A DNA stretch of 63,350 nt, counting the filler, from Reclinomonas americana ATCC 50394 (lineage: Eukaryota): assembly GCA_048213135.1 (NCBI GenBank). It is 7 parts of 3 records of this genome, joined end to end, with 100 filler letters (N's around TTAATTAATTAA, not from the genome) between each part and the next. Parts side by side here need not be neighbours in the genome. Positions count along the whole stretch, not along the records: positions 21,548 to 30,616 come from PS015052.1; positions 30,717 to 39,311 come from PS015052.1; positions 39,412 to 53,693 come from PS015052.1; positions 53,794 to 61,088 come from PS015053.1; 3 more parts are not named here. One strand, written 5' to 3'. Under the pieces are notes generated by a model. That model made no database searches and had not been told where the DNA came from. It saw only the letters and a program-made list of their open reading frames with translations. The position numbers were made by a program, and so were the translations under genes. This document shows, in pieces, positions 21,548 through 61,088 of the stretch; position 1 is the first letter of the stretch, and each line of letters begins with the position of its first letter.

Positions 21548-22046
21548 CTATCGAGAGACCACTGATTGTGATTGACGAACGTGGTCACTCTGAGGCATGT
21601 ATCCTGGATGTGTGGTTCTGTGAATCGATGTTAGCTTGCTCACTTTGCGTACTCTGGCAGGAGTCAGCAAAGTTGACGAAATACAGCGATCGAAACGCTC
21701 TTCTGCCATTCATCACGCAGGCCATGCATCTGCTCCACGATTGCCCAGGTCTGCTGGGCACGCTGCTTCGTGACGGGTGCCTTTCGAAGGCGGAGATTGA
21801 GCGTGCTGGTGAGTGCTCCAAATGGAAAGATCTGGAAGCACCTGCTGCTGTTGCGTATCGTGCCACCATCGACTCTGACTCGCATGTTGCAGTGCTGGAT
21901 GACAAGAAGCCAAGGAAGATGGCAGTGGTGAAGAAAAAGGAGGAGGACGAGAAGGAGGAGGAGGAGGAGGAGGAGGAGGAGGAGGAAGAAGAAGAGGAGG
22001 GGAGGAGGAGGAGGAGGAGGAGGAGGAGGAGGAGGAGGATATGTAG
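21548..22046 (+). CDS. Five-module repeat family, copy A (last exons of module 5 only)
   Basis: ERPLIVIDERGHSE | ESAKL...LLPFITQAM...CPGLLGTLLRDGCLSKAEIERA | VLDDKKP...poly-E...DM*. An apparent frameshift lies in the GAG run. Confidence 0.75.
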
Positions 22047-23680
22047 AACAAGCAATTCAAGGTGGCGGTAGAGGAGGAATGGATGTGGAGAGGAAGACAC
22101 TGCCGTGGATGGAAGACGGTATANNNNNNNNNNNNNNNNNNNNNNNNNNNNNNNNNNNNNNNNNNNNNNNNNNNNNNNNNNNNNNNNNNNNNNNNNNNNN
22201 NNNNNNNNNNNNNNNNNNNNNNNNNNNNNNNNNNNNNNNNNNNNNNNNNNNNNNNNNNNNNNNNNNNNNNNNNNNNNNNNNNNNNNNNNNNNNNNNNNNN
22301 NNNNNNNNNNNNNNNNNNNNNNNNNNNNNNNNNNNNNNNNNNNNNNNNNNNNNNNNNNNNNNNNNNNNNNNNNNNNNNNNNNNNNNNNNNNNNNNNNNNN
22401 NNNNNNNNNNNNNNNNNNNNNNNNNNNNNNNNNNNNNNNNNNNNNNNNNNNNNNNNNNNNNNNNNNNNNNNNNNNNNNNNNNNNNNNNNNNNNNNNNNNN
22501 NNNNNNNNNNNNNNNNNNNNNNNNNNNNNNNNNNNNNNNNNNNNGTTGCACCGGTGCGTGGTGAGGGAGTGAGAGTCAGGCAGAAGGGGGAAAGAGAGAG
22601 GGTAGAGATTTCGCTGGGCTAGCAGCACATGCAAGTTGTATGCGAGATCAATAGAGCTTGTCGAAAGAGAAGAAGAAGAAAGCAGATTCGCGAAGCACCA
22701 AGAGGAACACTTCTGAGCAGCAGCCTGGTGCTGTGAGGGCTGGACTTTGCATGTGAGTCGTGTCTTCGTGCACCTGACTTGTTGTTGTCGTAGGAGGAAG
22801 AGCAAGGCGAGGGGAGGAAGATTGGAGCCGGGGACCATCATGCAACTTGCGAGGCGAATGAATGCTGGTGTACGTGGAGCCGCCCGGAGGCATCCATTTG
22901 CTCTCGTGCGTGTTGCTCACTCGCACCTACAACAAACACCAAACGGCTGTCTTGTTCACCCAAGTCCAGCCATATTCGACGACAAGAACACCTGCTTCTT
23001 CTGTGTTCATGGCGGCGACAGAGCAGCACGCTACTGATGCATGATGGCCCACCGCCAGCTGCGAAGACGGGAGTACCCATCGTGTGTTATGTGAAGATGA
23101 CTCATGCACTTGTGCATCGATGTCGTTAACCAGAAGAGAGCGTTGCCTTTGTTGGGTCTGTTGATACTCATGCACCTACACTTGACCACCACCTCAGCGG
23201 GTGCGCTTGGAATGCCGTCTCGATGACGATCAGGGTTGGTGGTTTTCAACGAGTTCGTAACCTTCTCGTTGTGTTTTTTGTCTGCGTCTCTTCCTCGGTG
23301 TCCATCGCCATGATGCAGCTGCTCATGTGCTCTGTTGTACTCTGTGCGGAGTTGTTGTCCATCATCACCTCAGCACCCAGCTTCCCCTGATCCATGTTCT
23401 CGAGCTCTCCAGGATCCGGAGAGAGAGAGATTCAGAACAAAGAGGCATGCATGCTGCTGGTCATGGAGAACAATCGCAGCTGACGATGCACCCAAGGTTG
23501 CCCGGTTCTCTGACACTCCCTCTCTCCTTCCTCCTCCTCCTCCGCACTTCACATCACGACTTGTCATTTTTCATCTTGCTGTTCGGATCAACGAATCTTC
23601 ATTGCTTCTCTTCTCTCTCTTCGTTTCTTGCGTCACGCAGTGTGCGCGTGTGTGCGAAACAACAGCAAAGACACACACGA

Positions 23681-26600
23681 ATGGCCTCTCGACCTCCCCC
23701 TCCACCTCACTCAGCAACAACAACAACAACTCCTTCGCTGCCAATGTCTGCCTTTTCTCCGTGCGACGACGAGAAAGCAGACATGATGCTCGTCGACAGC
23801 AAGCAGCATGTGACGACGATGATGATGATGCATTCCTCCTCTCCATCCATCAACAGCAACGATGATGAGGAGAAGAAGAAGAGTGCATCGGAGTCGTCTG
23901 CTCATCGTGGTGTGCCTGCGATGGCGAGGCGACGAGTGCCTGTCTCTTCCTCCTCCTCTTCTTCTTCCACGTCTATCNNNNNNNNNNNNNNNNNNNNNNN
24001 NNNNNNNNNNNNNNNNNNNNNNNNNNNNNNNNNNNNNNNNNNNNNNNNNNNNNNNNNNNNNNNNNNNNNNNNNNNNNNNNNNNNNNNNNNNNNNNNNNNN
24101 NNNNNNNNNNNNNNNNNNNNNNNNNNNNNCTGATTGTGTGTCGTCCCAAGATTAGCATGTATCTCACTGAATTCTCTCTCTCTCTCTCTCTCTTGGCATG
24201 ATTGCGCAGCAACGCGCGAGGAGGCGGCGAGTCGACTCGTCTCAGGTGGATCACAGCGAGGACTTGCTTGCACGTGATTCAGTTGAGACATCGGTCCGCA
24301 AGCGTTCTCTGGAGGTGAGCTTCTTTGAGGCATGCGTTTCAGTTGCCTCTCTCTTGTGCATCGCAGTTGACAGCTGATGCTCCCTTCATTCTCTGCAGGT
24401 GGATGCATCCAGCGACGATGAGATTGCACCGCCGAAGAAGAAGAAGAAGGTTGGATTCTCTGTCATTGTCATTGTTGTGTTCGTTCATCGATCTGCCTGT
24501 GGGTTCCATGTGTCAATGATTCATGTTGTGATTCACAGCGTGGCAAGACTCTAGCTGCGAAAGAGCCAGTGGAGTTGAACACAGACGAGAGGCTGTTGCT
24601 GAACAAGCTGCTTGTTGCGTGTGCTTGTCACTCTGTCATCATTGCAACCCAGCTCTCTCCTCCTTCTCCTTGTTGCACTCACCATTCTATCTGTGTCACT
24701 TGTAGCGATTCAATCGAAAGAGAGTTCTGGTGAAGGCATTCGGGTTGATGGCACCCATTGTTCGGGAATCCACTGTCATCCACCATCAGAGTGTTCTCTT
24801 TGATATTGCCTGGGACGACTGCGGGATTCCATTGTCGGAGCCGAATCGCGCGTCGTCTGCAGTCAAGTGTGCGATTGGCAAGAGCCTCGGTGAGACTGCC
24901 AGTCATTCACGCGCCAAAACGCCCAAATCAGTGGAGAGTGTGCTCAAGAGCGTGAGCAACTACATCGAGGTGAGCAAGCATGTGTGCGTATGAACGACCA
25001 TGACATGTGAACCAACATGCAGATGATTGTAATCCTGCAGATGAGCCAGCTCAGTGGCGCGGCGCTGGTGGATGCTGTTGAGAGACCACTGATTGTGGTG
25101 GATGAGCGCGGGTATTCGGAGGTGAGTTTGTTTTTCGCGATCCCCTGTATCTGCTGTGATCACGTCTACTGATCTTCGCTCACTTGGCTTGTATGTGCCA
25201 GGGATCGTGGGAGAGATTGCCAACAGGATTCAAGAACAAGAAAGATCATCTTCTGCCATATGTCGAGCCGGCCATGGATGCATTACGCGAATGCGATGGT
25301 CTCATGACTGCTCTGCTTCGAGACAATCACCTCACTGAGGTTGAGATAGCACGTGCCGTCACGTGGTGCCGATCGAAAGGTCTGCAATCTCATACCGCTG
25401 TTGGTGTTGCTGGTGTTGGTGTTGACCAGCACCACGCAGAGTATGGCGATGTGAAGATGGAGGTGAAGAAGGAGGAAAATGACGGAGAGGGTGATGTCGT
25501 CAAGTTCGAAGACGATGACATCAAGGTACGGAGCAATAGTGTGGGAGCATCAAATGCTGCGGGCGCGCTAGTCTTCGTGGACTTGGTCGACCATCGATAT
25601 CTTTCTTGTTCACAGGACGATGACGGAGGAACAAAGCCGAGCAAGGTACGGCGATGCCCGATGTTTGTGGATGGTTGGTGAGGCAGGTGTTGATTGTGAA
25701 TGTTGGATGGGGTATGCACTTGCAGCGCGTCAAGAGTGGTCGCCGCGTGCCGGATGTGGATTTGAGCAAGGACGAGCAGATGGTGCTGGACAGACTGCAT
25801 GTTGCGTGTGTATGTCCACTGCACCTCAGCAATGCAGAGTGATTGACTCTGCCATGTCTTTGCCTGTCATAACACCTGACTTGTGCATGTGTGTGAATAG
25901 CGATGCAACAAGAAGAAGATACTGGTGATGGCATTCGGCATCATGGCGCCCATTGTGAAGGCATCCACAGTCTTGCATCATCAGCGGGTTCTGTTTGAAC
26001 TCGCCTACACGGAGTGTGGCATTCCTTCGTCAGGAGCTGGCAGTCCATCGTCCGCAGTTATGGAAGCATTCAGCAAGAGTCTTGGCTGTTTCGTCCAAGG
26101 CGCACGCACCAACACACCCAAGTCTGTTGAAGGAGTGCTCCAGAGCATGAGCAACTTCATCGAGGTGAGCATCTGTCTGTTCTGTCTATCTCTCACGCGG
26201 CTAGAAAGTAAGCCAATATCGATGCATGCGCAACTGTGCAGAAGAGTGAACTGCGCGGTGCTGCTCTGGCAGATGTCATTGAGAGACCACTTATTGTGGT
26301 GGATGAACGGGGCTATTCAGAGGTGTGCCGACTGTCCTTTGTGCTATTCGCATTTCTTGGTTTGTGTCGACTCACTTGCTTTGTGCAGGAATCATGGAAA
26401 ATGATGGAGATGAAGCAGAAGAAAAACGACCAACTCCTGCCGCTTGTCATCCAAGCCGCGCAGGCCTTACGTGACTGTCCTGGCTTGCACGCGTCGCTGA
26501 TTCGAGACGGCTGTCTCTCCGAGGAGGAGATCGAACGGGCCGTCGAGTGGTGTGGCGAAAGAGGTTTGATGGCGTCGGATGCGTTCTACTGTGTGCATTG

Positions 26601-29600
26601 TGTTAGGACTGACAGGCGAGATGCAGCACTGCTGGAGGCGAAGGTGGTGAAAAAAGAGAGATGAAGGTGGAGAAGGAGGAATGGGTAGATGATTCAAGGG
26701 TCGATGGGGAAGACGATGCAGACGACGACATGGATGAGGCTGACAGGAGCAAGGTATGATCATGGATGATCGGGCAGGTGCACGTTGTGGCAACATCTCA
26801 TCTGTACATGCTCAGCGACGAGGGACTGGTTCTGTGACAATGAGCAAGGACGAACAACTGATGCTGGCAAGGCTGCTTGTTGCGTGTGTTTGCAGTCGAG
26901 TGTCCTTGCGTAAGTCGTCTTGCTCATTGTGTGTTAATCGCACCATCCATGTGTTCCATGCGAGAGCAGTGCTGCAACAAGAAGAAGATACTGGTGACGG
27001 CATTCGGCATCATGGCAACCGTTGTGCTGCCAGGCACTGTCCGTCATCATCAGCGCGTTCTTGTTGAACTCGCCTGTGAGGAGTGTGGCATCCTTTCATC
27101 GAAAGCAGGACGGCTTTCGACGGCAGTCGTGAGCTCATTTGGCAAGAGTCTTGGCACGTTTGTCAGTATAGCACGCACCAAGACGCCCAAGTCAGTTGAG
27201 GGTGTGCTCCAGATGATGAGCGACTTTATCGAGGTGAGCAGCGATCATCTTCTTGCGCAAGTCTATCAATGATGAGCGCTAACATATGTGCCATTATGCA
27301 GAAGAGTGAACTGTGCGATGCGGCTCTGGCGGATGCCATTGAGAGGCCGCTGTTTGTATTGGATGAACGTGGTCATTCGGAGGTGTGGCTTACCCGCGCT
27401 CAGTGAGCTCTGCGCACGCGTTGTTTCTCACGTTCTGTGCTTTTGCAATTCGGATGTCAGGAGTCGTCACGCTTGGCGAGGGCGCAGCACATCAACAAGC
27501 ACAGTCCCTTTATGCCGTTCGTCACACAGGCTGTGGATGCTTTCCACCACTGCCCGGGTATGCAGGCCACTCTGCTTCGAGATGGATGCCTTTACGAGGC
27601 GGAGATTACTCGTGCCGTCAAGTGGTGCCGTGAACGAGGTTTGGTTGCGTGACACACATTGTTGCAATTTGTGAATACTCTGACGAACAGGCGACAGCTC
27701 TGAGGGAGATGGAGACGGCGAAGAGAGAGAATAAGAAAGAGGACGACGATGATGATGACGGCAGCGAGAATGAGGACGATGGCGGGAAGGGAAACAGGAG
27801 ACACAAGGTACGTTCGTCACTGCTATCTATATAATGAGACGTGAATGATGCAAAAACTGCGCGGTACTCAATCGCAGCGCCACAAGAGTGGTCTTTCGAA
27901 ATTGAGCATCAACGAGCAACTTGTGCTGGCGAAACTGCTTGTTGCGTATTGTTGTTGTTGCTTCTCTGCTCGGCTCCTCATTCCCACTCACCCAACGAAC
28001 ATGCGAGCAGGGTTGCAACAGGAAGAGGGTTCTGGTGAACGCATTCGGTCTCATGGCACCTGTGGTTATGGGATGCACAGTCCTCCATCATCAGCGCCTT
28101 CTCGTCCCGCTTGCCTTTGACGAATGCGGAATACCCTCAAGGGGGCCTGGCTGTCCGTCATCCGCAGTCTTGTCTGCATTCAGCAAGAGCCTTTCAGGCA
28201 GTGCCGACGCTACACGCAGCAAGACGCCCAAGTCAGTGGAGGGCGTGCTTGAGAGTGTGAGCAACTTCATAGAGGTACGTGTCCCTGTGTTGACATTCAA
28301 CAGTGACGTACCTGCCAGCTGACCTGACCTGCCTTCCATTGCGTGCATGTGGAATCATTAGAAAAGCGGACTTCGAGGAGCTGCACTGGTGGATGCTGTC
28401 GAGAGACCACATATTATTATTGCCGACCTTGGCCATTCTGAGGCATGCGGACTGTGATTTGTGCATTGATGTGCATCAATGATGTTGTCTCACTTTCTCG
28501 TTTCTCGGGTGGCAGGAATCAGCCAAGCTGACGCAGATAAACGGCAAGCAAAACGTTCTTCTGCCGTTCGTGACACAGGCCATGCAAGCTCTTCGCAACT
28601 GTGCTGGCCTGCTGGCTGCTCTGCTCCGAGACGGTTGTCTGTCTGAGGCGGAGATTGCACGTGCCGCCGAGTGGTGCAGTGAGCGAGGTTTGGCTGCGTG
28701 ACACACATTGTTGTACAGTGTGAACGGTGCTGACAAGCAAGTGACCAGTCATCAGGGAGATGGAGATGAAGAAAGAGGAGAAGGGAAAGGACGACGAGCA
28801 GGCGGATGATGATGACGACGGCAGCGAGAATGAGGACGATGATGGGGAGGGCAACAGGAGCCACAAGGTACGCCCGTCTCTCTTTCTATGAGATGTGAAT
28901 GATGCGTGCATTTCAAAACTGCATGGTTCTCAACCACAGCGCCACAAGAGTGGCCCTGCGATATTGAGCATCAACGAGCAGCTACTGCTCACGAGACTAC
29001 ATGTTGTGTGTTGTTGTTACCTCTCTGCTCGGCTCCTCCCGCCCACTCACCCCCCGCACTTGCAAGCAGGGTTGCAACAAGAAGAGTATACTGGTGAAGG
29101 CATTCGGTCTCATGGCATCCGTGGTACTGAGAGCCACTGTCCTCCATCATTGGCGAGTTATCGTTCAACTTGCCTGTGACGATTGCGGAATACCTTCAAA
29201 GGGACCGGGCAGTCCTTCATTCGCAGTCATGTCAACATTTGGGAAGAGTCTTGCCAAAAGTGCCAACGCGGCACGCAACAAGACGCCCAAGTCAGTTGAG
29301 GGTGTACTAGCGAGCGTGAGCAACTTCATCGAGGTGAGTGTAGGTGTCCTGTGCTGTTTCACCATCAATTGATACGTGGCTGGTGACTGACTTGAGTTCA
29401 ATATATGCGAGATTATCAGAAGAGCGGTCTTCGAGGAGCTGCGCTGGTGGATGCTGTCGAGAGACCACTGATTGTGATTGACGAACATGGCCACTGTGAG
29501 GCATGTCTTCTGGATGTGTGGTTCTGTGGGTCGATTACAGCATTCTCACAATGCGTACTCTCGGGTGGCAGGAATCGGCAAAGTCGTTGAGGGGAGGCCA

Positions 29601-29824
29601 TCAAAATTCTCTTCTGTCATTTGTCACGCAGGCCATGCAGCTGCTCCATAACTGTCCCGGCCTGCTGGCCGCTCTGCTTCTTGACGGGTGCCTTTCAAAG
29701 GCGGAGATTGCGCGTGCTGGTGAGTGCTCCACATGGAAAGATCTCGATGCACCTGCTGCTGTTTCATGTCGTGCCATCACCCGCACTGACTCGTATGATG
29801 CAGTGCTGGATGACAAGAAGCCAG
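23681..29824 (+). CDS. Five-module repeat family, copy B (modules start ~24539, 25725, 26815, 27878, 28940); 3' end in the gap; frameshifted linker in module 2
   Basis: Begins MASRPPPPP, followed by an NLS-like PPKKKK exon and five iterations of the same 5-exon cassette. Confidence 0.75.
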
Positions 29825-30317
29825 NNNNNNNNNNNNNNNNNNNNNNNNNNNNNNNNNNNNNNNNNNNNNNNNNNNNNNNNNNNNNNNNNNNNNNNNNNNN
29901 NNNNNNNNNNNNNNNNNNNNNNNNNNNNNNNGTCTGCGTCTCTTCCTCGGTATCCATCGAGGCGATGGTGCCATGATGCAGCTGCTCATGTGCTCTGCTG
30001 TTCCCAGTGAGGTGTTATTGTCCATCAGCATATTAGCACCAGCTTCCCCTGATCCATGTTCTCTCCGCAAGAGAGAGATCTAAAACTAAGAGACATGCGT
30101 AGCTGGTCATGGAGAACAATCGCAGCTGACGATGCACCCAACATTGTCACGTTCTCTGACCCTCTCCCCTTCTCACCACTTCTTCCCCTCCCTTCATATC
30201 ACGACTTGTCACCTTTTCATCTTGCTGTTCGGATCAACGAATTCTCTGTCACTCTCTTCGTTTCTTGCATCACGCAGTGCGCGCGTGTGTGCGAAACAAC
30301 AGCAAAGACACACACGA

Positions 30318-30616
30318 ATGGCCTCTCGACCTCCTCCTCCGCCTCCACGCCCTCACTCAACAACAACAACAACAACTCCTTCGCTGCCAATGTCTGCCTT
30401 TTCTCCGTGCGACGACGAGAAAGCAGACATGATGCTCGTCGACAGCAAGCACCACGTGACCCGTACGATGATGACGATGCATTCCTCCTCTCTCTCCATC
30501 AACATCAACGATGATGAGGATGAGATGAAGAAGAAGAGTGCATTGTGGTCGTCTGCTCATCGTGGTGTGCCTGCGATGGCGAGGCGACGAGTGCCAGTCT
30601 CCTCTTCCTCTTCTTC
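30318..30616 (+). CDS. Five-module repeat family, copy C (first exon, cut by scaffold end)
   Basis: MASRPPPPPPRPHSTTTTTTPSLPMSAFSPCDDEKADMMLVDSK..., ~500 bp downstream of copy B in tandem. Confidence 0.7.
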
Positions 30617-30717
30617 NNNNNNNNNNNNNNNNNNNNNNNNNNNNNNNNNNNNNNNNNNNNTTAATTAATTAANNNNNNNNNNNNNNNNNNNNNNNNNNNN
30701 NNNNNNNNNNNNNNNNG

Positions 30718-30719
<2 letters not shown>

Positions 30720-30798
<79 letters not shown>
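30720..30798. repeat. (GT)n microsatellite in the first intron of the repeat family
   Basis: Perfect GT run. Copy E's first donor also runs into GT repeats at 46749. Other microsatellites lie at 21387, 44810, 49040 and 63191. Confidence 0.95.
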
Positions 30799-30801
<3 letters not shown>

Positions 30802-31057
30802 ATCTCTTTCCTTGTTCCTGTTGCACTTGCGTGTTGCCGCTGTTTCTCTTTGTGCCCTTCATGTGGCCACAGCTGTGCGTGCTTTTTCTCACTCTCCCCT
30901 GCGTGTGTTTTTTGGTGACTGTGTCGAGCTCCGCATCTGCTTTCCTCTCAATGTGATGATGATGGAGAGTGCAACGATTCTCTCCTCCTCCTCCTCCTCC
31001 TCCTCCTACCTCCTACCTCCTTCTCATGAATTGTCGTTGTTTCATTTTCTGTTGCAG

Positions 31058-39311: not shown

Positions 39312-39411
39312 NNNNNNNNNNNNNNNNNNNNNNNNNNNNNNNNNNNNNNNNNNNNTTAATTAATTAANNNNNNNNNNNNNNNNNNNNNNNNNNNNNNNNN
39401 NNNNNNNNNNN

Positions 39412-44808: not shown

Positions 44809-44898
<90 letters not shown>

Positions 44899-49038: not shown

Positions 49039-49108
<70 letters not shown>

Positions 49109-52100
49109 GACGNNNNNNNNNNNNNNNNNNNNNNNNNNNNNNNNNNNNNNNNNNNNNNNNNNNNNNNNNNNNNNNNNNNNNNNNNNNNNNNNNNNNNNNN
49201 NNNNNNNNNNNNNNNNNNNNNNNNNNNNNNNNNNNNNNNNNNNNNNNNNNNNNNNNNNNNNNNNNNNNNNNNNNNNNNNNNNNNNNNNNNNNNNNNNNNN
49301 NNNNNNNNNNNNNNNNNNNNNNNNNNNNNNNNNNNNNNNNNNNNNNNNNNNNNNNNNNNNNNNNNNNNNNNNNNNNNNNNNNNNNNNNNNNNNNNNNNNN
49401 NNNNNNNNNNNNNNNNNNNNNNNNNNNNNNNNNNNNNNNNNNNNNNNNNNNNNNNNNNNNNNNNNCGAAACGCAGTCTGGCATCATCAGCGCGTTCTTTT
49501 TGAACTCGCCTGCACGGAGTGTGGCATCCCTTCGTCAGGAGCTGGCTCTCCGTCGTCCTCAGTCATGGACTCATTCGGCAAGACTCTTCGTAGTGTCGCC
49601 CACTATTCACGCCAAGAGACGCGTAAGTCAGTTGAAGGAGTGCTCCAGAGCATGAGCACCTTCATCAAGGTGAGCATCTGCCTCTGCTGCCCATCACGCA
49701 CGACTGGAAAGTGAGCCAACATCATTGCATGCACAACTCTTGCAGAAGAGTGAACTGCGCGGTGCTGCTCTGGTGGATGCCATTGAGAGACCATTGATTG
49801 TGGTGGATGAACGTGGCCATTCAGAGGTGTGTAACAGTTCCTTTGTGCGCTCTTGCGTTTCCCGGTTTGTGGCGACTGACTTGCTTCTTTTATTATGTCG
49901 GTCGTGCTGCAGGAATCATGGAAGATGATGGATAGGAAACCGTATATCGACAATCGTCTCATGCTTATCGCCCGAGCCACGCAGGCACTACGGGGGTGTC
50001 CTGGCTTTCAGGCGTCGCTGATTCGAGACGGCTGCCTCTCCGAGGCAGAGATTGCACGGGCCGTCGAATGGTGCAGCAAAAGAGGTTTGATTACAGCGGG
50101 CGTGTTCTGCTGTGCGTGTGTTGTGTTAGGACTGACGAGTGAGATGCAGCTCTAGTGGACGCGACGGTGCTGAAGAAAGAAGAGATGGAGGAGGAGGATG
50201 AGGAGGAGGAACAGGAGGATGATTCAAGGGTCGACGAGGAAGATGGTGAGGACGACGACATGGGTGAAGGTGGCGGGAGCAAGGTATGATACGCTAATTG
50301 GTGGAGTGGGTTCTCACTGTGACAGCAGTTCATGACGCGCATTCACAGCGACGAGGGAGTGGTTCGACGACAATGAGCCACGACGAACAATTGGTGCTGG
50401 CACGTCTACTTGTTGCGTGTGTGCTGCAATCTTGTCATTCTTTGGAAATCGTGTGGCTGATTGAATGTTCATTGCGCCATACATGTGATTCATGGCGAGC
50501 AGTGCTGCAACAAGATGAAGTTACTCGTGACGGCGTTTGGCATAATGGCTCCGATGGTTATGGGATCCACAGTCCTCCATCATCAGCGACTTCTTGTTGA
50601 ACTCGCCTGCAAGGAGTGTGGCATCGTTTCATCGAAAGCAGGCTGTCTTTCGTCGGCAGCTGTGAGCTCATTTGGCAAGAGTCTTTGCGACTTCGTCAGG
50701 ACAGCACGCAGCAAGACGCCCAAGTCGGTTGAGGGAGTTCTCCAGAGCATGAGCAACTTTATCGAAGTGAGTATCGTCCATGTCGCGCGACTGAATCAAT
50801 ATCATCGCTAACATATGTGACATTATGCAGAAGAGTGAACTGCGCGATGCGGCTCTGGCGGATGCCATTGAGAGACCACTGATTGCGGTGGATGAACGTG
50901 GTCGTTCGGAGGTGCGGCCGCCTTGCGTTTCTGTGTTCGTTGTATGTACTCAAGATCTCAACATGGCTGGTGTTTTCTCATGTTCTGTGTTCCGGAATTC
51001 GGGTGTCAGGAGTCGTCAAACTTGCCGGGACTGCAGCACTACAAGCAGAGTCCTCTTCTGCTGTTCTTGACACGGGCTGTGGATGCTCTCCGCAACTGCT
51101 CTGGCCTGCTGGCCACTCTGCTTCGAGACGGTTGTCTGTCTGAAGTGGAGATTGCACGTGCGACAGAGTGGTGCAGCGGAAGAGGTTTGGCTACGTGACG
51201 GTTGATAGATAGATGCAGTGTGTACAAGCGCTGACAATTAGGCACAGTTCTGAGAGAGATGGAGAATGTGAAGAAGGAGGAGAAGATGGAGGATGAGCAG
51301 GATGAGGATTTCATCGAGAAAGAACGCGACGACGAGAAGCGAAGTGGGAAAAGCAAGGTACATCATTCAGTAAGCTGCAGGATGCTTGAGCATCCCAAAT
51401 TACTGGACTTTCGTTCCACAGCGGACCAGGGTTGGTCATTTAAAGCTGAGTGTCAACGAGCAACTGACGCTGGCGAAACTGCTTGTTGCGTGTTGTCGCA
51501 CGTCTCCAACTATGTTATCAAGAAATCCTCACTTGTATCTGCTCATCGCATATGTGAACAGGGCGGCAACAGGAAGAGGATGCTGGTGAAGGCATTTGGC
51601 CTCATGGCACCCGTGGTACTGAGAACCACTGTCCAACATCATCAGCGCCTTCTCTTTCAGCTTGCCTGTGATGCATGCGGAATACCCTCGAAGGGACCTG
51701 GCAGCCCGTCATCCGCAGTCATGTCTGCATTCGGCAGGAGTCTTGCCGGTAGTGCCAACACGACACGCTGCAGGACGCCCAAGTCAGTGGAGGGCGTGCT
51801 TGAGAGAGCGAGCAACTTTATCGAGGTGAGTGTCAATGTGTTGTTTCTCTGTCACATCTGCTTGTGCTGTGTGCACGGCTAACGACCTGCCTTCCATTGT
51901 GTGCATGTGGAATCATTAGAAGAGCGGTCTTCGAGAAGCCGAGCTGGTGAATGCTGTCGAGAGGCCAATGATTGTGATTGACGAACGTGGCCATTCTGAG
52001 GCATGCGGACTGTGATTGTGTGCGCTGTTGTGCATCAATGATGTTGTCTCACGTTTTCAATCCTTGGGTGACAGGAAACAGCCAAGCTGACGCAGATAAG

Positions 52101-53486
52101 CAGCAGGCAAAATCCCCTTCTACCGTTCGTCACACAGGCCATGCAGGCTCTTCGCAACTTCCCTGACCTGCTGACCACTCTGCTTCGAGACGGCTTTCTG
52201 TCTGAGGCGGAGATTGCACGTGCCGCCGAGTGGTGCAGTGAGCGAGGTTTGGCTGCGTGACACACATTGTTGTACAGTGTGAACGGTGCTGACAAGCAAG
52301 TGGCCAGTCATCAGGGAGATGGAGATGGTGAAGAAAGAGACGAAGGAAGAGTACGACGAACAGGCGGATGATGATGATGACAGCAGCGAGAATGAGGACG
52401 ATGACGGGAAGGGAAACAGGAGACAGAAGGTATGCCCGTCACTGCCTTCATGAGACGTGAATGATGTGTGCATTTCAAACGGCATGGTTCTCAATCGCAG
52501 CGCCAGAAGAGTGGCCCTGTAAAGTTGAGCATCAACGACCAGCTTATGCTCCTGAGACTACATGTTGCGTGTTGTCGTTGCCTCGCTGCTCGGCTCCTCG
52601 CTCCCACTCACCCACCGCACATGCGAACAGGCATGCAACAAGAGGAAGATACTCGTGAAGGCATTTGGCCTCATGGCACCCGTGGTGCTGGAATCCACAG
52701 TTCGCCATTATCAGCGCGTTCTCTTTCAGCTTACCTGTGACGAATGCGGATTACCGTCCGAGGGGCCAGGCTGCCCGTCAACCGCAATCTTGTCTGCATT
52801 CGGCAGGAGTCTTGCCGGTAGTGCCGGCACGGCACGCAGCGACACGCCCAAGTCAGTGGAGGGTGTGCTGGCGAGCGTGAGCAACTTCATCGAGGTGAAT
52901 GCGTGTGCTGTCTCTGTGTCGCCTCCGATCGTGACGTTCTGTTGACTGACTTGAGTTCAATATATTCGCGCGGGATCATCAGAAGAGCGGTCTTCGAGGA
53001 GCTGCGCTGGTGGATGCTGTCGAGAGACCACAGATTGTCATCGACGATCGTGGCCACTCTGAGGCATGTCTTCTGGTTGTGTGATTCGGTGAATTGATGT
53101 TAGCTTGCCCACTATGCGTACTCTCGGGTGGCAGGAATCAGCTAAGTCCACGCATAAAAATGGCTTTCCAAATGCTCTCCTGCCATTCGTCACGGAGGCC
53201 ATGCATCTTCTCCACAATTGCCCTGGCCTGCTGGCCACTCTGCTTCGAGACGGGTGCCTTTCGAAGGCGGAGATTGCGCGTGCTGGTGAGTGCTCGAAAT
53301 GCAACAATTTGAGTGCACCTGGTTGTTGTTGCGTGTCGTGCCAACATCAGCACTGACGAGCATGATGCAGTGGTGGGTGACGAGAAGCCGGTGAAAATGG
53401 AGGTGGTGAAGGAGGAGGAGGAGGAGGAGGAGGAGGAGGAGGAGGAGGAGGAGGAGGAGGAACAGGACGAGGACGAGGATGTGTAG
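46436..53486 (+). CDS. Five-module repeat family, copy E (ATG to stop, two internal gaps; modules start ~47699, 48885, 50350, 51422, 52501)
   Basis: Runs from MASRPPPPPPRSHS through five cassettes to poly-E and TAG 53484-53486. Confidence 0.8.
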
Positions 53487-53902
53487 AACAAGGTGGTGAT
53501 GGGGGAGGAACTGGATGTGGAGAGCTCGACACAGCCGTGGATGGACGATGGCATGCCTGCATCGGTGCGCGGCGAGGGAGTGAGAGTGATTGGTAGAAGG
53601 AGGGATGAGACAGAGAGAAGGCCAGCTATGTTGAGATGCAACGCGGATCAACGGGGGAATGGAGCGGTATGTCGCTCAATCTCTCTCTCTCTCNNNNNNN
53701 NNNNNNNNNNNNNNNNNNNNNNNNNNNNNNNNNNNNNTTAATTAATTAANNNNNNNNNNNNNNNNNNNNNNNNNNNNNNNNNNNNNNNNNNNNTCTTCTT
53801 CTTCTTCTTCTTCTTCTTCTTCTTCTTCTTGTTCTTCTTCTTTTTTCTTCTTCTTGTTCTTGTTTCTCATGGATTGTCGTTGTGTTTCATTCCCTGTTGC
53901 AG

Positions 53903-56900
53903 AACCAGCTGGCTTCTTGGAGGACAAGAAGAAGAAGCACACCGACGAGAGCACAGCCGCCATTGCCGCTGCGCGAAGTGACGTGGAGAATCGCACTGAG
54001 GACGGTTCGTCTCTCTCTCTCTCCCTCCTTCTTGCTGTCATTGGTGTTCTCGCGCCACGTGATTTCTCATCTGGGCGGTGTATGCACACAGCTACATACC
54101 AGGAGCACATGGAACACACAGCGATGGAAGGCATCGTCGAGGTACTGTGACTTGTGTGTCGTCCCAAGATGAGCATATCTCTCACTGTATTCTCTCTCTC
54201 TCTTGGCATGATTGCACAGCAACGCGCGAGGAGGCAGCGAGTCGACTCGTCTCTGGTGCATCACAGCGAGGACTTGCTTGCACGTGATTCAGATGAGAAA
54301 TCGGTCCGCAAGCGTTCTGTGGAGGTGAGTTGTGATGAGGCATGCGTTTCACTTGCCTCTTTCTCGTGCATCGCAGTTATCACCTGATGTTTCATACATT
54401 CTCAGCAGGTGGATGCATCCAGTGATGACGAGCTTGCCCCGCCAAAGAAGAAAAAGAAGGTTTGGATTCTCTGTCTTTGTCATTGGTGTGTTTGTTCATC
54501 GATCTGCACTTGGGTTCATTTGTGTCAATGATGCGTGTTGTGGATTCACAGGTTGGCAAGACGCAAGCTGCGAAGAAGCCAGAGGAGTTGAGCGCGGATG
54601 AGAAGCTGTTGCTGAACAAGCTGCTTGTTGCGTGTGCATGCTCTCTGTCATCACTTTAACCCATGGCCACCTTGATCCTCCTTCTCCTCGATGTAGTCAC
54701 CATTCTTACTGTGTCTCTCGCAGCGATGCAATCGGAAGAGGATTCTGGTGAAAGCATTCGGGTTGATGGCTTCCATTGTTCAGGAATCCACTGTCATCCA
54801 CCATCAGAGCGTTTTCTTCGAGATGGCCTGTGACGAATGCGGGGTTCCGATGTCGGAGCCGGGTCGCGCGTCGTCGGCAGTCAAGAGTGCATTTGGCAAG
54901 AGTCTTGGTGAAACTGCCAGCTATTCACGCTGCAAAACGCCCAAATCAGTGGAGGGTGTGCTACATCGCGTGAGCATTTTCATCGAGGTGAGCGAACATA
55001 CGTGGTGACGACCATGACATGTGAACCAACACGCAAATGATTGCAATCTGCAGATGAGCCAGCTCAGTGGCGCGGATCTGGTGGATGCTGTTGAGAGACC
55101 ACTGATTGTGGTGGATGAGCGCGGGTATTCGGAGGTGAATTATCTGCATGTTTGTTGCGATCATGTCCACAGACTTCGCTCACTCTGCTTGTGATAGGAG
55201 TCTTGGAAGGGATTGGCACCGCAGAACAAATCGCAGAAAGACCGTCTTCAGTCGTTTGTCACGGAGGCCATGGATGCATTGGGCGAGTGCGATGGTCTCA
55301 TGGCTGCTTTGCTTCGAGGGAGCCGCCTCTCTGAGGCCGAGATGTCGCGCGCCGTCACGTGGTGCCAATCAAAAGGTCTGCAACTTCATGAGACTGTTAG
55401 CGTTGCTTGCGTTGGTGTTGACCAGCACCGCGCAGAATCTGGCGATGTGAAGATGATGAAAGAAGAGGAAGAGGAGCAAGAAGAGGATGATGGCATCAAA
55501 GATGAAGACGATAACAATAAGGTATGCCAGAATAGTAGAAAAATGACACTGGCTGTTTCGCGTTTTCACGTACTTGGTCGACCATTGATGCCTTGTGCGT
55601 TCACAGGTGGATGCAGGGGGTGACGATGACAAAGAATCGAAACCGAGGAAGGTACGGCGATGCCCGATGTTTTTGGATGGTTGGTGTGGCAGGTGTTGAT
55701 TGTGGATGTTGCACGGGGTATGCACTTGCAGCTCGACAATCGTGGTCGCCCTGTAGTCGATGCGGATTTGAGCAAGGATGAGCGAATGGTGCTGGACAGA
55801 CTGGTTGTTGCGTGTGTGTGTCCACAACACCTCAGCAAGGCAGATTGATTGAGTCTGTCTTGTACCTGCCTATCATTACATCTGATTCGTGCTCGTGTCT
55901 GTGCGAACAGCGGTGCAACAAGAAGAAGATTCTGGTGATTGCATTCGGCATCATGGCGCATCTATTGAAGCCATTTGCAGTCTGCCATCATCAGCGGGTT
56001 CTGTTTGATTTCGCATGCAAGGAGTGTGGCATCCCTTCGTCAGGAGCTGGCAGTCCGTCGTCCGCAGTCGTGGACTCATTCGGGAGGAGCCTCGGCAAGC
56101 TCGTCCAAAATGCACGCGCCGAGACGCCCAAGTCTGTTGAAGGAGTGCTCCAGAGCATGAGCAACTTCATCGAGGTGAGCAAATGTCTGTTCTGTCTATC
56201 CCGCGCGGCTAGAAAGTGAGCCAACATCATTGCATGCACAACTCTGCAGAATAGTGAACTGCGTGGTGCTGCTCTGGTGGATGCAATTGAGAGACCGCTG
56301 GTTGTGGTGGATGATCGTGGGCATTCAGAGGTGTGCAAACTTTCCATTTGCCTATGTTTTCATCCTTTGGTTTTGTGTCGACTCACATGCTTCTTTCACG
56401 ATGTCGATCGTGCTGCAGGAATCATGGATGATGATGGAGTACAAACGGAAGAGCAACGATCCTCTCCTGCCGCTCATCGCCCAAGCCGCGCAGGCCCTAC
56501 GTGAGTGTCCTGGCTTGCAAGTTTCGCTAATTCGAGACGGCTGTCTCTCCGAGGAGGAGATCGAACGGGCCGTCGAGTGGTGCAGTGAGAGAGGTTTGAT
56601 GGCATCGGATGCGTTCTACTGTGTGCATCTTGACTGAGCTGACAAGTGAGGTGTAGCTCTGCTGGAGGCGATTGTGCTGAAGAAAGAAGAGACGATGGAA
56701 GAGGAAGAAGAGGAGGATGATTTGAGGGTGGACGAGGAAGACGATGAAGACGACGGCACGGCTGAAGGTGACAGGAGCAAGGTATGACCATGGATGGTGG
56801 GACGGGTGCACACTGTGGCATCGACTTATGGAGCGCATTCGCAGCGACGAGGGAGCGGTTCTACGGCAATGAGCAAAGACGAACAACTGCTGCTGGCGAA

Positions 56901-59900
56901 GCTCTTTGTTGCGTGTGATTTGCAGTCAAGTGTCCTTCTTTGGTAATCGCCTGGCACTCATGTGTTTCATGCGAGAGCAGTGCTGCGACAAGCGGAAGTT
57001 ACTGGCGAAGGCGTTTGGCATCATGGCGCCGTTCGTGATGGAATCCACAGTCCGTCATCATCACCGCGTTCTTGTTCACCTCGCATGCAAGGAGTGTGGC
57101 GTTGCTTTATCAAAATCGGGCTGCCTTTCGGCGGGAGTCGTGAGATCATTTGGCAAGAGTATTGGTCGTGCTGTCCGAGAAACACGCACCAAGACGCCCA
57201 AGTCGGTTGAGGGAGTGCTCCAGAGCATGAGCAACTTTATAGAGGTGAGCAACGCCCGTCTCATTCGACCTGAATCGAAGGCCATCGCTCACATATTTGC
57301 TATTGTGCAGAAGAGCGAACTGCGTGGCGTTCCTCTGGTAAATGCCATTGAGAGGCCACTGGTTGTAGTGGATGAACGTGGCTGTTCTGAGGTGTGGCTC
57401 TCTTGCGCTCCGTGTGTGGTGTTTATGCTGGGTGGTGTTTTCTCACATTCTGTGCTCCGAAAATCGGATGTCAGGAGTCGTCACGCTTGCCAGGGATGCA
57501 GCACAACAAGCAGATCCCTCTTTTGCCATTCATCACACAGGCCGTGGATGCTCTGACCAACTGCCCGGGTCTGCCGGTCACTCTGCTTCGAGATGGATGT
57601 CTGTCCGAGGCGGAGATTGTACGTGCCGCCGAGTGGTGCGGTGAACGAGGTTTGGCTGGGTGTTTTTTGTGATTGCTGCACTGTTTGTGCACGTACTGAC
57701 AATCTGGCCCAGCTCTGAGAGAGATGGAGATGATGAAGAAGGAGGAGAAGAGGGAAGAAGATCAGGAGGATGCTAACGACAGCGAGAATGAGGATGACGA
57801 CGCGAGAGGGAATGGCAGGAGCAAGGTACGCCCGCCCGCCACACCTTTCTGAAAGATGCAAAGAAAAGTGTATCTAAACAATTCATTGTGTGCGTTTGCA
57901 GCGCCGCAACAGTGGTCCTGCGAAGCTGAGCATTAACGAGCAACTGATGCTGGCGAAACTGCATGTTGCGTGTTGCTGTTATCTCTGCACGTGGCAGACA
58001 AAACATTCGAGAACTCCTCACTCCCATCTACCTGCATTTCTGTTGAGCAGGGTTGCAACAAGAAGAGGATATTGGTGAAAGCATTCGGCCTCACGGCACC
58101 CGTGGTGATGCCATCCACAGTCATCCACCACCAGCGCGCTCTCTTCCGGCTTGCCTGTGACGAATGCGGCTTGCCTTCCGAGGGACCTGGTTGCCCGTCT
58201 TCCGCTGTCTTGTCTGCACTCGGCAAGAGTCTTGCCAGTAGTGCCGGCATGGCACGCAGCCGGACGCCCAAATCAGTGGAGGGCGTGCTCAAGAGTGTGA
58301 GCAACTTCATCGAGGTGTGTGTCAGCGTGTAGATTTTGTTTTTCATTCGACAGTGACTGCCTGCTTGCTGATCCGACATTCATGTGCATGTAATTATCAG
58401 AAGAGCGGTCTTCGAGGACCCGAGCTGGCGAATGCTGTCGAGAGACCAATAATTGTGATTGACGAACACGGCCACTCGGAGGCATGTGGACTGTGATTGT
58501 GTGTATCGATGTGCGTGTCTCATTTTCTCGTTTCTCGGGTGACAGGAATCAGCCAAGCCAAGCGGCAAGCAAAACGTTTTTCTGCCATTCGTCACACAGG
58601 CCATGCAGGCTCTCCACAACTGCCCTGGCCTGCTGGCCACTCTGCTTCGAGACGGATGTCTGTCCGAGGCGGAGATTGCTCGTGCTTCCGAGTGGTGCAG
58701 TGAACGAGGTTTGGCTGCGTTTCGATCATTGCTGGAGAGTGTGTGCAGGTGCTGACAAGTAGGCGACAGCTCTGAGGGAGATGGAGATGATGAAGAAAGA
58801 GAAGAAGAGCGAGGACGACGAACAGGCGGATGATGATGACGACAGCGAGAATGAGGACGACGACGGGGAGGGGAAAAGGAGACACAAGGTACGCCCGTCA
58901 CTGCTATGTGTGAGACGTGAAAGATGTGTGCATTTCAAAACTGCATGGTTCTCAACCACAGCGCCGGAAGAGTGGCCCAGCGAAGTTGGGCATCAACGAG
59001 CAACTGATGCTGGCAAGACTGCTTGTTCCGTGTTGTCGTTACCTCACTGCTCGGCTCCTCACTCCCGCTCACCCAACAAACATGCGAACAGGGGTGCAAC
59101 AAGAAGAGGATCCTGGTGAAGGCATTTGGCCTCATGGCCTCTGTGGTACTTAGATGCACAGTCGGTCATTATCAGCGCCTTCTCTTCCAGCTTGCCTGTG
59201 ACGAATGCGGAATACCTTCAAAGGGACCGAGCTGTCCATCATCCGCTGTGATGTCTGCATTTGGCAAGAGTCTTGCCAAGAGTGCGACTTGGACACGCGG
59301 CACGACTCCCAAGTCAGTGGAGGGCGTGCTCGAGAGCGTGAGCAACTTCATCAAAGTGAGTGTCGATGTGCTGTTTCTGTGTCACAATTACTTGATACTC
59401 GCCTGGTGATGACTGAAGCTCCATGACTGTGCAATCATCAGAAGAGCGGTCTTCGAGGAGCTGCGCTGCTGGATGCTGTGGAGAGACCACAGATTGTCAT
59501 CGACGATTGCGGCTACTGTGAGGCATGTATCCTGCATGTGTGGTTCTGTGAATCGATATTAGCTTTCTCACTTTGCGTACTCTCGGGTGGCAGGAATCGG
59601 CGAAGTTGCCGAAGAACAACCATCCAAATGTTCTTCTGCCATTCGTCACGCAGGCCATGCACTTACTCCACAACCATTCTGGCCTGTTGACCAGTCTGCT
59701 TCGAGACGGTTGTCTTTCAAAGGCGGAGATTGCTCGTGCCGGTGAGTGCTCCAAGTGCAACAGTCTTGATGCACCTGCTGCTGTTTCATGTCGTGTCAGT
59801 GTCAGTACTGACATGCGTGATGCAGTGGTGGGTGACGAGAAGCCGGTGAAGATGGAGGTAGTGAAGCAAGAGGAGGAGGAGGAGGAGGAAGAGGAGGAGG

Positions 59901-59923
59901 AAGAAGAAGACAAGAATATGTAG
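53903..59923 (+). CDS. Five-module repeat family, copy F (exon 2 to stop, gap-free; modules start ~54552, 55732, 56845, 57902, 58962)
   Basis: EPAGFLEDKKKKHTDE exon onward, five cassettes, stop TAG 59921-59923. Confidence 0.82.
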
Positions 59924-60789
59924 GGCAAGGAATTCAAGGTGGTGGTGGAGGGGGTGATGGATGGGCAGTGCAAGACACTGCCGTGGATGGATTACGGCAT
60001 GGCTGCACAGGTGCATGGACAGTGACTGGGAGCGAGTAGCAGCGGAACTTTCGTTTTGATAGAAGAGGGTGAAGAAGGTGTGAAGTGAGGGATGGAGGAG
60101 CAAAGTGAGTGCTTGTGTTTATCGCGCTGCTCGTCCGCGTTTGATTGAGTCAGAGAAGTTTCGTCGCCAGTTTGTGGTGAGCTGAGGGTGCGACGAGGAC
60201 GTGACGGAGGCAGGGAGGGCGGTGCGTTCACGTAGTCGCCACAAGTACAGAGTACCGACAACGCGGCTTGCTCGCAGAAGCGACGAAGGAGAACAGACAA
60301 TCACCAGCGTGTCCGCGACTTACCGTACTCTCCTCTTCCGCCATTATAACTGCAGTCCCTTGCAGCCAACCAACAGCGTTGCGATTCTGTCATCCTGCTC
60401 TTGCTCTCGATCGGTGTCCAGCGAGGTGATGCTGCCCTGCTGCAGCTGTTCATGTGCTCTGTTGTACTCTGTGCGGAGTTGTTCTCCATCATCACCTCAG
60501 CACCAGCTCCCCCTGTTCCACGTTCTCTCCGCAAGAGAGAGATCCAAAACTAAGAGACATGCATTGCTGGATATGCGGAACAATCGCAGTTGACGATGCA
60601 CCCAAGTTTGCCCAGTTCTCTGACACTCCCTCTCTCCTTCTTCTTCCTCCTCCTCCCCTCACATCACAACTTGTCACCTTTTCATCTTGCTGTTCGGATC
60701 AACGAATCTTCATTGCTTTCTCTCTTTCTCTTCGTTTCTTGCATCACGCAGTGCGCGTGTGCGTGAAACAACAACCAAGACACACACAA

Positions 60790-61088
60790 ATGGCCGCTCG
60801 ACGTCCTCCTCCTCCACCGCGCCCTCACTCAACAACAACAACAACAACAACTCCTTCACTGCCAATGTCTGCATCTTCTCCGTGCGACGACGAGAAAGCA
60901 GACATGATGCTCGTCGACAACAAGCAGCATGTGACGACGATGATGACGATGATGCATTCCTCCTCCTCGCTCTCCACCCACATCAATGATGATGATGATG
61001 AGGATGAGATGAAGATGAAGAGTGCATTGGGGTCATCTGCTCATCGTGGTGTGCCTGCAATGGCAAGGCGACGAGTGCCTGTCTCTTA
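60790..61088 (+). CDS. Five-module repeat family, copy G (first exon, cut by scaffold end)
   Basis: MAARRPPPPPRPHSTTTTTTTPSLPMSASSPCDDEKADMMLVDNK..., tandem to copy F. Confidence 0.7.

Follow-up and report, generated by a model that had tools for sequence, protein, structure and literature searches.

The analysed window, a stretch of 63,350 nucleotides of the genome of Reclinomonas americana ATCC 50394, is composed of seven scaffolds chained via artificial N44-TTAATTAATTAA-N44 spacers. Four of these scaffolds (S3-S6) carry a family of related + strand sequences, comprising four near-complete genes (B, D, E and F) and three fragments (A, C and G) (Table 1). The array unit is ~7.3 kb long, at least five copies of it are present, and wherever copies adjoin they are arranged head-to-tail. 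This arrangement, as well as the numbers of genes and fragments, had been proposed in a preliminary description, and was seen here both in a motif scan and by tblastn over positions 21548-61088. In the six-frame regular-expression scan of this region, the + strand matches formed a ~1.05-kb periodic series; those on the - strand were few, isolated and confined to short motifs.

The exons were mapped by tblastn, using the five exon peptides (e1-e5) of module 4 of gene F. The large exon e2 was located in 20 modules, with e1, e3, e4 and e5 placed between the e2 exons in constant order. Each gene contains five such cassettes with a period of 1038-1192 bp and conserved intron positions and phases, in agreement with the ~1.05-1.2-kb cassettes originally described. 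On the scaffold of gene E, ordinary genes (a Fip1 motif and a clathrin adaptor small chain) were found upstream of this gene. The window was also scanned for Rfam families and tRNAs, with no matches.

Table 1. Positions of the gene copies, exons and other features of the array (numbering of the whole window).
Feature	Position	Strand	Remarks
Scaffold S3	21548-30616		
Scaffold S4	30717-39311		
Scaffold S5	39412-53693		
Scaffold S6	53794-61088		
Fragment A	21550-22046	+	3′ end of a further gene copy, start of S3; poly-Glu exon from 21893
Gene B	23681-29824	+	first exon from ATG 23681 into N gap; five modules; C-terminal exon interrupted at 29825 by N gap
Gene B, e2 starts, modules 1-5	24712, 25904, 26973, 28011, 29070	+	
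Fragment C	30318-30616	+	first coding exon of the unit after B
Gene D	31058-37123	+	second exon from 31058; five modules; stop TAG 37121-37123
Gene D, e2 starts, modules 1-5	31879, 33069, 34160, 35230, 36322	+	module 4 e2 split by 20-N gap
Gene E	46436-53486	+	five modules; stop TAG 53484-53486
Gene E, first exon	46436-46748	+	104 codons + 1 nt
Gene E, e2 starts, modules 1-5	47867, 49469, 50506, 51562, 52634	+	module 2 e2 partial (N gap)
Gene F	53903-59923	+	reference hand model; phase-1 acceptor 53901-53902
Gene F, N-terminal part	to 54459	+	four short exons, the last ending PPKKKKK
Gene F, e2 starts, modules 1-5	54727, 55914, 56984, 58051, 59092	+	
Gene F, module 4 cassette	57902-58888	+	e1 57902-57964; e2 58051-58314; e3 58401-58481; e4 58546-58708; e5 (acidic linker) 58770-58888
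GC-AG donor after e3, F module 4	58482-58487	+	GCATGT
GC-AG donor after e3, F module 5	59523-59528	+	GCATGT
Gene F, C-terminal poly-Glu exon	59826-59923	+	stop TAG 59921-59923
Conserved non-coding stretch	60411-60789	+	upstream of first exon
Fragment G	60790-61088	+	first coding exon of the unit after F

All of the gene models are predictions, made by hand on the basis of paralogue homology and splice consensus. The model of gene F comprises 30 exons and 1277 codons with no internal stop, and its 29 introns (60-104 nt, mean 76.6) are of the GT-AG (27) or GC-AG (2) type. The cassette of its fourth module is in phase 0 at both ends, with a phase-1 junction between e4 and e5. At the sites projected by homology onto the module exons, the acceptor AG was present in 26/26 cases in D, 26/26 in B and 25/26 in E (the single miss falls in an N gap), and all projected donors were GT or GC (25/25 in each of these three genes). 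In all four genes, modules 4 and 5 have kept the GC donor following e3 (8/8); in modules 1-3 the e3 donors are GT (12/12).

A conserved first exon lies upstream of the modelled part of the genes. After its ATG it has undergone in-frame indels only, and its phase-1 donor matches the phase-1 acceptor of the second exon. The model of gene F does not reach its 5′ end, as the scaffold stops at a break within a microsatellite. The ATG at 53869 was rejected as the start of F, since D is out of frame at this point and the upstream first exon fits the acceptor of gene F. If 11 probably intronic residues are subtracted from the 1277 and the 104-codon first exon is added, the predicted protein is ~1370 aa long, encoded by about 31 exons, which fits the earlier estimate of 1300-1400 aa.

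Fragment A retains, from a module 5, part of e3 together with e4, followed by the poly-Glu exon of the C-terminus, and is 78.8% identical to positions 59481-59910 of F. Because its (GAG)n run switches frame once, only the shifted frame leads to the TAG at 22044-22046. In gene B, module 2 carries a 13-nt deletion relative to D within its acidic linker (exon 26627-26753), which results in a frameshift. Scaffold S4 begins within (GT)n of intron 1 of gene D, and this gene contains two 20-N gaps, in exons m3e4 and m4e2. The first exon of gene E has the donor G/GTGTGT, and the gene is interrupted by N gaps at 46761-47167 and 49113-49465. Fragment C forms a 99-codon open frame, and the scaffold ends while this frame is within a (TCT/TCC)n run that encodes Ser. 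Fragment G, which contains runs of Pro, Thr and Ser, is likewise open to the scaffold end. The conserved stretch preceding fragment G recurs at about 29947, 23307 and 46088; its copies are 82-89% identical, compared with 76-83% for introns, and differ by indels that are not multiples of three. It probably constitutes a promoter or 5′ UTR.

The predicted protein opens with a low-complexity N-terminus of ~230 aa, containing Pro, Thr and Ser runs together with basic clusters (KKKK, RARRQR, PPKKKKK). Five copies of a ~190-aa module follow, each encoded by e1-e4, mainly alpha-helical and mildly basic; the consensus first given for this module agrees with the module alignments A1, A2 and A3. The linkers encoded by e5 (~40 aa) are strongly acidic (pI 4.1-4.6) and close with a K/R cluster that leads into RRxSG, and the C-terminus of the protein is a poly-Glu tail. 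The net charge of the module cores ranges from -3 to +12; in 14/17 of them the pI is 8.6-9.9, and the remaining three are not basic (pI 5.9, 7.1 and 7.7). Conservation across the paralogues extends to the basic clusters (PPKKKKK, KRRHKRRK) and the long acidic runs. The PPKKKKK motif, said to occur in each gene, was found in F, B and E, but D has PPRKSKKK instead. The highest 19-residue Kyte-Doolittle window (2.08; e2 helix of F module 2) is nominally in the membrane-helix range. A membrane helix in e2 was rejected, as K or E occupies the same position in other modules and the AF2 model packs this segment in a bundle. The encoded proteins appear to be soluble, with no convincing membrane segment within the modelled region.

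The copies bear clear, though relaxed to moderate, signs of coding constraint. The dN/dS ratio was 0.37-0.46 over 734-966 codons of e1-e4, rather than near 1, and below 0.6 in each exon class. Gap runs in pairwise alignments were divisible by three in 44/49 cases in exons versus 31/246 in introns. These values bear out the constraint that had been deduced from preserved frames. At ~20% divergence, all e1-e4 exons without N gaps are in frame and stop-free in the four genes. The only true frameshift in a module exon of these genes is that of the acidic linker B m2e5; a further frame difference was seen in the 5′ exon n1 of gene D, and all other breaks fall at N gaps. Exon identity (81.6-85.5%) exceeds intron identity (75.8-83.2%) by just 2-6 points. 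The pattern of a pseudogene array (frame disruptions scattered over the exons, exon indels without regard to length, a dN/dS ratio close to 1) was not observed, but the frameshift in B and the frame change in A mean that some copies may be decaying, or that the draft is wrong at microsatellites.

The modules cluster by position in the gene (m1, 100/100; m2, 99/96; m3, 100/99; m4+m5, 99/97), which implies that the five-fold structure is older than the gene duplication. The alignment of module 4 with module 5 extends over 1.2 kb, including the introns, at 74%. Gene structure, selection and module clustering thus agree with the proposed tandem family of five iterated five-exon cassettes. Its description as expanding was not supported: the paralogues are old copies (dS 0.29-0.41) and gene B is frameshifted. 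According to the history that we propose, the cassette would have multiplied first, at the DNA level and with its introns, via unequal crossing-over, in the order (m1,((m2,m3),(m4,m5))); because phase-0 introns bound the cassette, such events could multiply it in frame. The whole five-module gene would then have been duplicated in tandem, and divergence under relaxed purifying selection would since have brought the gene copies to ~80% identity.

We also performed searches for relatives of the encoded proteins, and in the libraries covered these revealed no match to a described domain or transposon protein, in line with the initial description of the family as unrecognised. Ten exon peptides (6 single exons and 4 two-exon read-throughs) matched no Pfam-A family in hmmscan at E values up to 10; the sole sub-threshold match (Sarcolamban, E 0.19; 12 bits, the cut-off being 27) is due to chance. 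The best match of an e2 profile among PDB sequences (hmmsearch) was also at chance level (sarcospan, E 0.31, 14.7 bits), and a word-indexed homologue search with this profile against longer proteins found none. An exhaustive search with the e2 profile of 1.84 billion representative proteins, a library in which neither this genome nor its near relatives are represented, gave no credible match. The only two matches (E 4.8e-6 and 1.6e-5) were rejected: they concern internally repetitive proteins, aligned over 5 and 3 short segments that account for 36/87 profile positions, and are treated as repeat-inflated chance. Metagenome contigs searched with e2 and e4 profiles, viral contigs, and full-text literature searched with words of the module peptides likewise yielded nothing. 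Consistent with this sparse coverage of the lineage by the protein library, for a control gene of the same window, encoding a TPR protein, the matches were to bacterial-type NB-ARC/TPR proteins only, with 32% identity for the top-scoring one and up to 42% over short stretches; for a 488-aa ORF of the window, no homologue was found.

The AF2 model of e2 is composed of five helices (pLDDT 86.4, pTM 0.72), and Foldseek with this model retrieved no matches at E <= 0.001 from PDB and BFVD. This exon therefore has a confidently predicted five-helix fold with no significant structural match. A complex prediction with e2, e3 and e4 as separate chains scored 0.01 in a run that did not use alignments, a value that carries no weight either way. 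The HH-x8-C-x2-C motif, put forward as a possible zinc ligand set, does exist, but is complete in only 12/18 full e2 exons. Among 19 e2 peptides, H26 and C39 are invariant (19/19 each), H27 is kept in 16/19 (Y in 3), and C36 in 16/19, with W, Y and F in the other three, all from gene B (3/5 of its modules). In the AF2 model, residues 28-39 form one helix, with H26/H27 preceding it and C36/C39 at its end, which would make a shared metal site unlikely. The case for zinc binding by the module is weak.

On balance, the locus as a whole is best explained as a head-to-tail array of paralogous protein-coding genes encoding a putative nuclear multivalent binder. We are confident that the genes constitute a real, selected, orphan coding family, which is directly supported by the structure of the genes, the history of the repeats, the signs of selection, the absence of relatives and the (predicted) helical fold of e2. 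The proposed function is put forward only tentatively. The protein would bind a polymeric partner multivalently in the nucleus; its basic helical modules may contact chromatin or nucleic acid, and/or its acidic linkers may contact basic proteins such as histones. We infer that the genes are expressed and that their products are located in the nucleus and have a binding partner. The nuclear, chromatin- or nucleic-acid-binding character claimed in the preliminary description has composition behind it (basic clusters, acidic linkers and the mostly high pI of the cores), and the structure searches lent it no support; basic clusters and acidic runs occur in non-nuclear proteins too. It is speculative that the ~190-aa module represents a fold class not described before, with nucleic acid or chromatin as its ligand and perhaps stabilised by the conserved His and Cys residues, within a lineage-restricted multivalent chromatin-architectural family that two nested rounds of duplication (of cassette and gene) created in a eukaryotic lineage scarcely represented in sequence databases.

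The evidence of structure and selection would be identical for a real orphan family acting outside the nucleus, as a cytoplasmic scaffold or chaperone-like protein in which the helical modules bind proteins and the charged segments are spacers. Such a role, which we regard as rather unlikely, accords with the variable charge of the cores and with the lack of a detectable DNA-binding fold or family. It is at odds with the classical-looking PPKKKKK and KRRHKRRK clusters and the long acidic runs kept across paralogues, with the lack of a convincing membrane segment in the modelled region, and with a first exon that opens on runs of Pro, Thr and Ser, not on a hydrophobic signal-like stretch.

Origin from a mobile element or virus, either as a diverged DNA-binding domain of a transposase or viral protein, captured and multiplied, or with the 7.3-kb unit itself being mobile, would suit a multi-copy, fast-evolving family without cellular homologues. 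By eye, e1 together with the beginning of e2 may resemble the spacing of helix-turn-helix/homeodomain-like DNA-binding domains: both parts have predicted helices, and a short conserved segment containing G separates hydrophobic helices. This origin is nevertheless improbable, given that (i) the scanned exon peptides contain no transposase, reverse transcriptase or integrase domain, (ii) an inverted-repeat scan of the whole unit found no terminal inverted repeats, only low-complexity (CTT)n versus (GAG)n pairs, (iii) the copies in the window, strictly head-to-tail and with a conserved upstream region, resemble a local array, (iv) no viral-contig or BFVD match was obtained, and (v) the positions of the 29 spliceosomal introns are conserved. 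That the array consists of decaying pseudogenes, or of satellite-like repeats keeping old open frames, is already disfavoured and highly improbable: the close exon and intron identities and the frame changes in B and A would suit it, but the intact e1-e4 frames, the exon indels in multiples of three, the dN/dS of about 0.4 and the conserved splice sites all oppose it.

If the reading as a nuclear multivalent binder is true, the array defines a new protein domain family, for which a helical structure is predicted with confidence and very large libraries contain no relative by sequence or structure. The array also illustrates with unusual clarity how a gene can grow by in-frame duplication of a five-exon cassette bounded by phase-0 introns and then itself be duplicated in tandem, both steps being still readable. 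In addition, it points to a eukaryotic lineage from which hardly any proteins have been sampled, as the best match of the control gene also indicates. Taken alone, the family is one among many lineage-specific families of protist-like genomes.

UBF-type proteins are nuclear architectural proteins with several HMG boxes (three-helix domains of about 75 aa) and an acidic tail. The family resembles them in having tandem small, helical, basic domains in one chain, with acidic segments and basic clusters. It differs in that its exon peptides match neither the HMG box nor any other Pfam domain, its module is far larger (about 190 aa, at least 6 helices), and its acidic segments separate every pair of modules instead of being only terminal. 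Proteins of the nucleolin, Nopp140 and nucleoplasmin types, which are nucleolar or histone-chaperone-like, contain alternating acidic and basic stretches. Similarly, D/E runs with Ser (SENEDDD-like) alternate with K/R clusters in the family, which also has the poly-Glu tail. In contrast to these types, its charged stretches link conserved, confidently predicted helical modules, and domains of the RRM, nucleoplasmin or NAP type were not detected. Genes are generally known to grow by duplication of exon cassettes of symmetrical phase and to form tandem arrays. The family follows this principle, with a phase-0-flanked cassette copied together with its introns, and subsequent tandem duplication of the whole gene. 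It differs from the general case in that the duplicated unit encodes a domain without a detectable relative, and in that two nested levels of duplication have both been preserved, with positional orthology of the modules.

A six-frame motif scan revealed that the matches on the + strand form a periodic series within positions 21548-61088; those on the − strand are few, isolated and confined to short motifs. Module 4 of gene F was read by eye as the reference cassette, and the peptides of its five exons (e1-e5) served as tblastn queries. The large exon e2 was found at 20 sites, five in each of the near-complete, + strand genes B, D, E and F. Between the e2 copies lie e1, e3, e4 and e5, always in one order, and the cassette period is 1038-1192 bp. 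The same search picked up a 3′ fragment (A) at 21550. Across about 4-6 kb, B, D, E and F align collinearly at 77-81% DNA identity, and their internal cassettes share 64-77% DNA identity with each other, introns included. A stretch located 3′ of F (60411-61085) recurs upstream (23307-23948) and downstream (29947-30601) of B, as well as upstream of E (46088-46698), so the units are arranged head-to-tail. Scaffold S6, broken at microsatellites, corresponds almost exactly to a single 7.3-kb unit, and fragments C and G each represent the first exon of a next unit. The tandem, head-to-tail family with five five-exon modules per gene, proposed in the preliminary description, is thus confirmed. Since A has a 3′ end of its own, unlike those of the four genes, there are at least five copies; draft breaks at microsatellites make the exact number uncertain, together with the 5′ end of F and two frameshifts.

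Coordinates of the scaffolds and annotated features
Feature	Position	Strand	Remarks
S1	1-14227
S2	14328-21447
S3	21548-30616
S4	30717-39311
S5	39412-53693
S6	53794-61088
S7	61189-63350
Spacers	starts 14228, 21448, 30617, 39312, 53694, 61089
F module 4 exons	e1 57902-57964, e2 58051-58314, e3 58401-58481, e4 58546-58708, e5 58770-58888	+
GC-AG donor sites in F	58482-58487, 59523-59528	+	equivalents in B, D, E
Fragment C	30318-30616	+	first exon of next unit
Fragment G	60790-61088	+	first exon of next unit
Arg/Asp/Glu/Ser-rich frame	39412-40062	+	S5, upstream of E
Fip1 motif (PF05182)	41148-42335	-	E 2.1e-9; S5, upstream of E, within very GA-rich repeats
Clathrin adaptor small-chain exon (PF01217)	45175-45957	+	E 5e-23; S5, upstream of E

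The exon boundaries of gene F were all set by hand. The resulting model comprises 30 exons (1277 codons, no internal stops) and 29 introns, which range from 60 to 104 nt in length and average 76.6 nt, with AG at every acceptor and 27 GT and two GC donors. When these sites were projected onto the other genes through a four-gene alignment, AG acceptors of module exons were present at 26/26 positions in D and B and 25/26 in E, where the missing one falls within an N gap; GT or GC donors were present at 25/25 positions in each. Cassette boundaries at both ends are in phase 0, the junction of e4 with e5 in phase 1. The 60-nt e4-e5 intron of module 1 (F 55376-55435) can be read through in frame in all four genes; its retention would insert 20 residues and leave the protein unbroken, which may reflect chance or an alternative isoform.

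An ATG at 53869 was considered as the start of F, but it probably lies within an intron, since D loses the frame at the corresponding position. Further upstream there is a conserved first exon, whose copies have their ATG at 60790, 30318, 23681 and 46436; all of its indels after the ATG are multiples of three, and those before it are not. The E copy of this exon extends for 104 codons and 1 nt, up to G/GTGTGT (46748), a donor compatible with the phase-1 acceptors of F (53901-53902) and D (31058); scaffold S4 begins within this (GT)n run. With the first exon added, the predicted full-length protein is about 1370 aa, within the 1300-1400 aa estimated previously. The 340 nt preceding the ATG show 82-89% identity among copies, above the intron level, which suggests a candidate promoter or 5′ UTR.

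Three measures are decisive for coding: (i) in each of the four genes the module exons stay in frame, except for those with N gaps and for e5 of B module 2, where a 13-nt deletion in the acidic linker shifts the frame, (ii) among pairwise gap runs, 44 of 49 in exons have a length divisible by three, compared with 31 of 246 in introns (pairs not being independent), and (iii) dN/dS, whose determination had been proposed earlier, ranges from 0.37 to 0.46 across the 734-966 codons compared in e1-e4 (Nei-Gojobori; dS 0.29-0.41) and is below 0.6 for every exon class. Exon identity among genes (81.6-85.5%) exceeds that of introns (75.8-83.2%) by a small margin. The coding constraint claimed from mostly preserved frames is real but relaxed. 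A pseudogene array is disfavoured, because reading frames are kept across genes and dN/dS is low. Gene B, in which the conserved Cys36 of e2 is gone in three modules (W, Y or F; 3/19 sequences, all from B) and dN/dS is slightly higher in pairs, may be decaying, or the draft sequence may be wrong there. Fragment A carries a frame change within a (GAG)n run.

A maximum-likelihood tree was built from e1-e4 of all 20 modules, with masking of three N-gapped exons. In this tree, modules cluster by position (m1, 100/100; m2, 99/96; m3, 100/99; m4+m5, 99/97), with m5 nested in the last group (82/93); the five-module gene is therefore older than the gene duplications. The branching order of the modules is (m1,((m2,m3),(m4,m5))), via cassette duplication at the DNA level. 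The donor after e3 is GT in m1-m3 (12/12) and GC (GCATGT or GCATGC) in m4 and m5 (8/8 across B, D, E and F). Since GT is kept in the older m1-m3, the GT-to-GC change predates the m4/m5 duplication, and the GC donor has been stable ever since.

The 63,350-base window does not represent a single locus: it strings together seven small draft scaffolds by means of spacers (N44-TTAATTAATTAA-N44), so adjacency of two scaffolds is no evidence of linkage. The gene family occupies S3 to S6. It contains 4471 N in total, with many internal N gaps, and the scaffold breaks fall at (CTT)n, (GT)n, (GA)n and (CT)n microsatellites. The region 39412-46000, 5′ of gene E, contains ordinary eukaryotic gene pieces, which places the array in a normal chromosomal context. 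GA-rich tandem repeats (periods 96/197, 131 and 26 bp) at 41683-42409 and 43988-44183 overlap the Fip1-motif frame. Scaffold S1 contains two tandem, apparently intronless TPR_10/TPR_12-rich genes (216-2621 and about 4258-6470, both +; E 1.8e-43 and 1.9e-18). Their best library matches are bacterial-type NB-ARC/TPR ("FxSxx-COOH system") proteins, the top scorer being only 32% identical; the pair represents a lineage-specific expansion or, alternatively, an old transfer. S1 also carries (i) an uninterrupted 488-aa open frame (6881-8347, −), for which Pfam gave no family and the word-indexed protein search no homologue and which may be another orphan gene or no gene, and (ii) a frame (11915-12682, −) that probably represents one exon of a gene of the SSRP1/FACT type, with a match to the histone-chaperone Rtt106-like middle domain (PF08512, E 6e-21).

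The N-terminal ~230 aa of the array proteins are of low complexity, with the basic clusters KKKK, RARRQR and, as already described, PPKKKKK. The cores (e1-e4) comprise 185-199 aa, with a pI of 8.6-9.9 in 14/17 (5.9, 7.1 and 7.7 in the remaining three), the linkers 36-46 aa, with a pI of 4.1-4.6 and K/R clusters at the end, and the protein tail is poly-Glu. Judged from this composition, the favoured but tentative reading, which we rate somewhat less likely than not, is a nuclear protein that would bind chromatin, nucleic acid or basic proteins multivalently.

Folding and searches used single exons or accidental intron read-throughs. The AlphaFold2 model of e2 (19-sequence alignment) has five helices (pLDDT 86.4, pTM 0.72). 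In module 3 of D the e1-e2 intron is by chance open and in frame, and the read-through model is of lower confidence (pLDDT 67.5), with e1 helical and the intron-encoded part disordered. Zinc binding had been suggested from the e2 motif HH-x8-C-x2-C. H26 and C39 proved invariant, but H27 is replaced by Y in 3/19 sequences, the full motif occurs in only 12/18 e2 exons, and the H26/H27 and C36/C39 pairs would lie at opposite ends of one helix in the model; zinc binding is thus a weak proposition.

Pfam assigned no family to six single-exon and four two-exon peptides (one chance sub-threshold match only), and the e2 profile gave no accepted match among 1.84 billion representative proteins, two weak matches being rejected as repeat-driven. 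The word-indexed protein search, PDB sequences, and metagenome and viral contigs yielded no relatives, nor did Foldseek against PDB and BFVD (E ≤ 0.001); the profile, Pfam and structure checks proposed earlier thus matched no described domain with the exon-level peptides, e2 profile and e2 model. As a control, the protein libraries gave no self-matches, and the Pfam-confirmed S1 TPR gene reached a top match of only 32% identity. These libraries are without this genome, and "no relatives" therefore means none in sampled life. Origin as a mobile element is disfavoured, since the searched exon peptides contain no element domains, terminal repeats were not found and the copies are organised as an array. 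What is secure is that these genes are real and under selection and form a tandem array with repeats nested inside it, an orphan family among known proteins.
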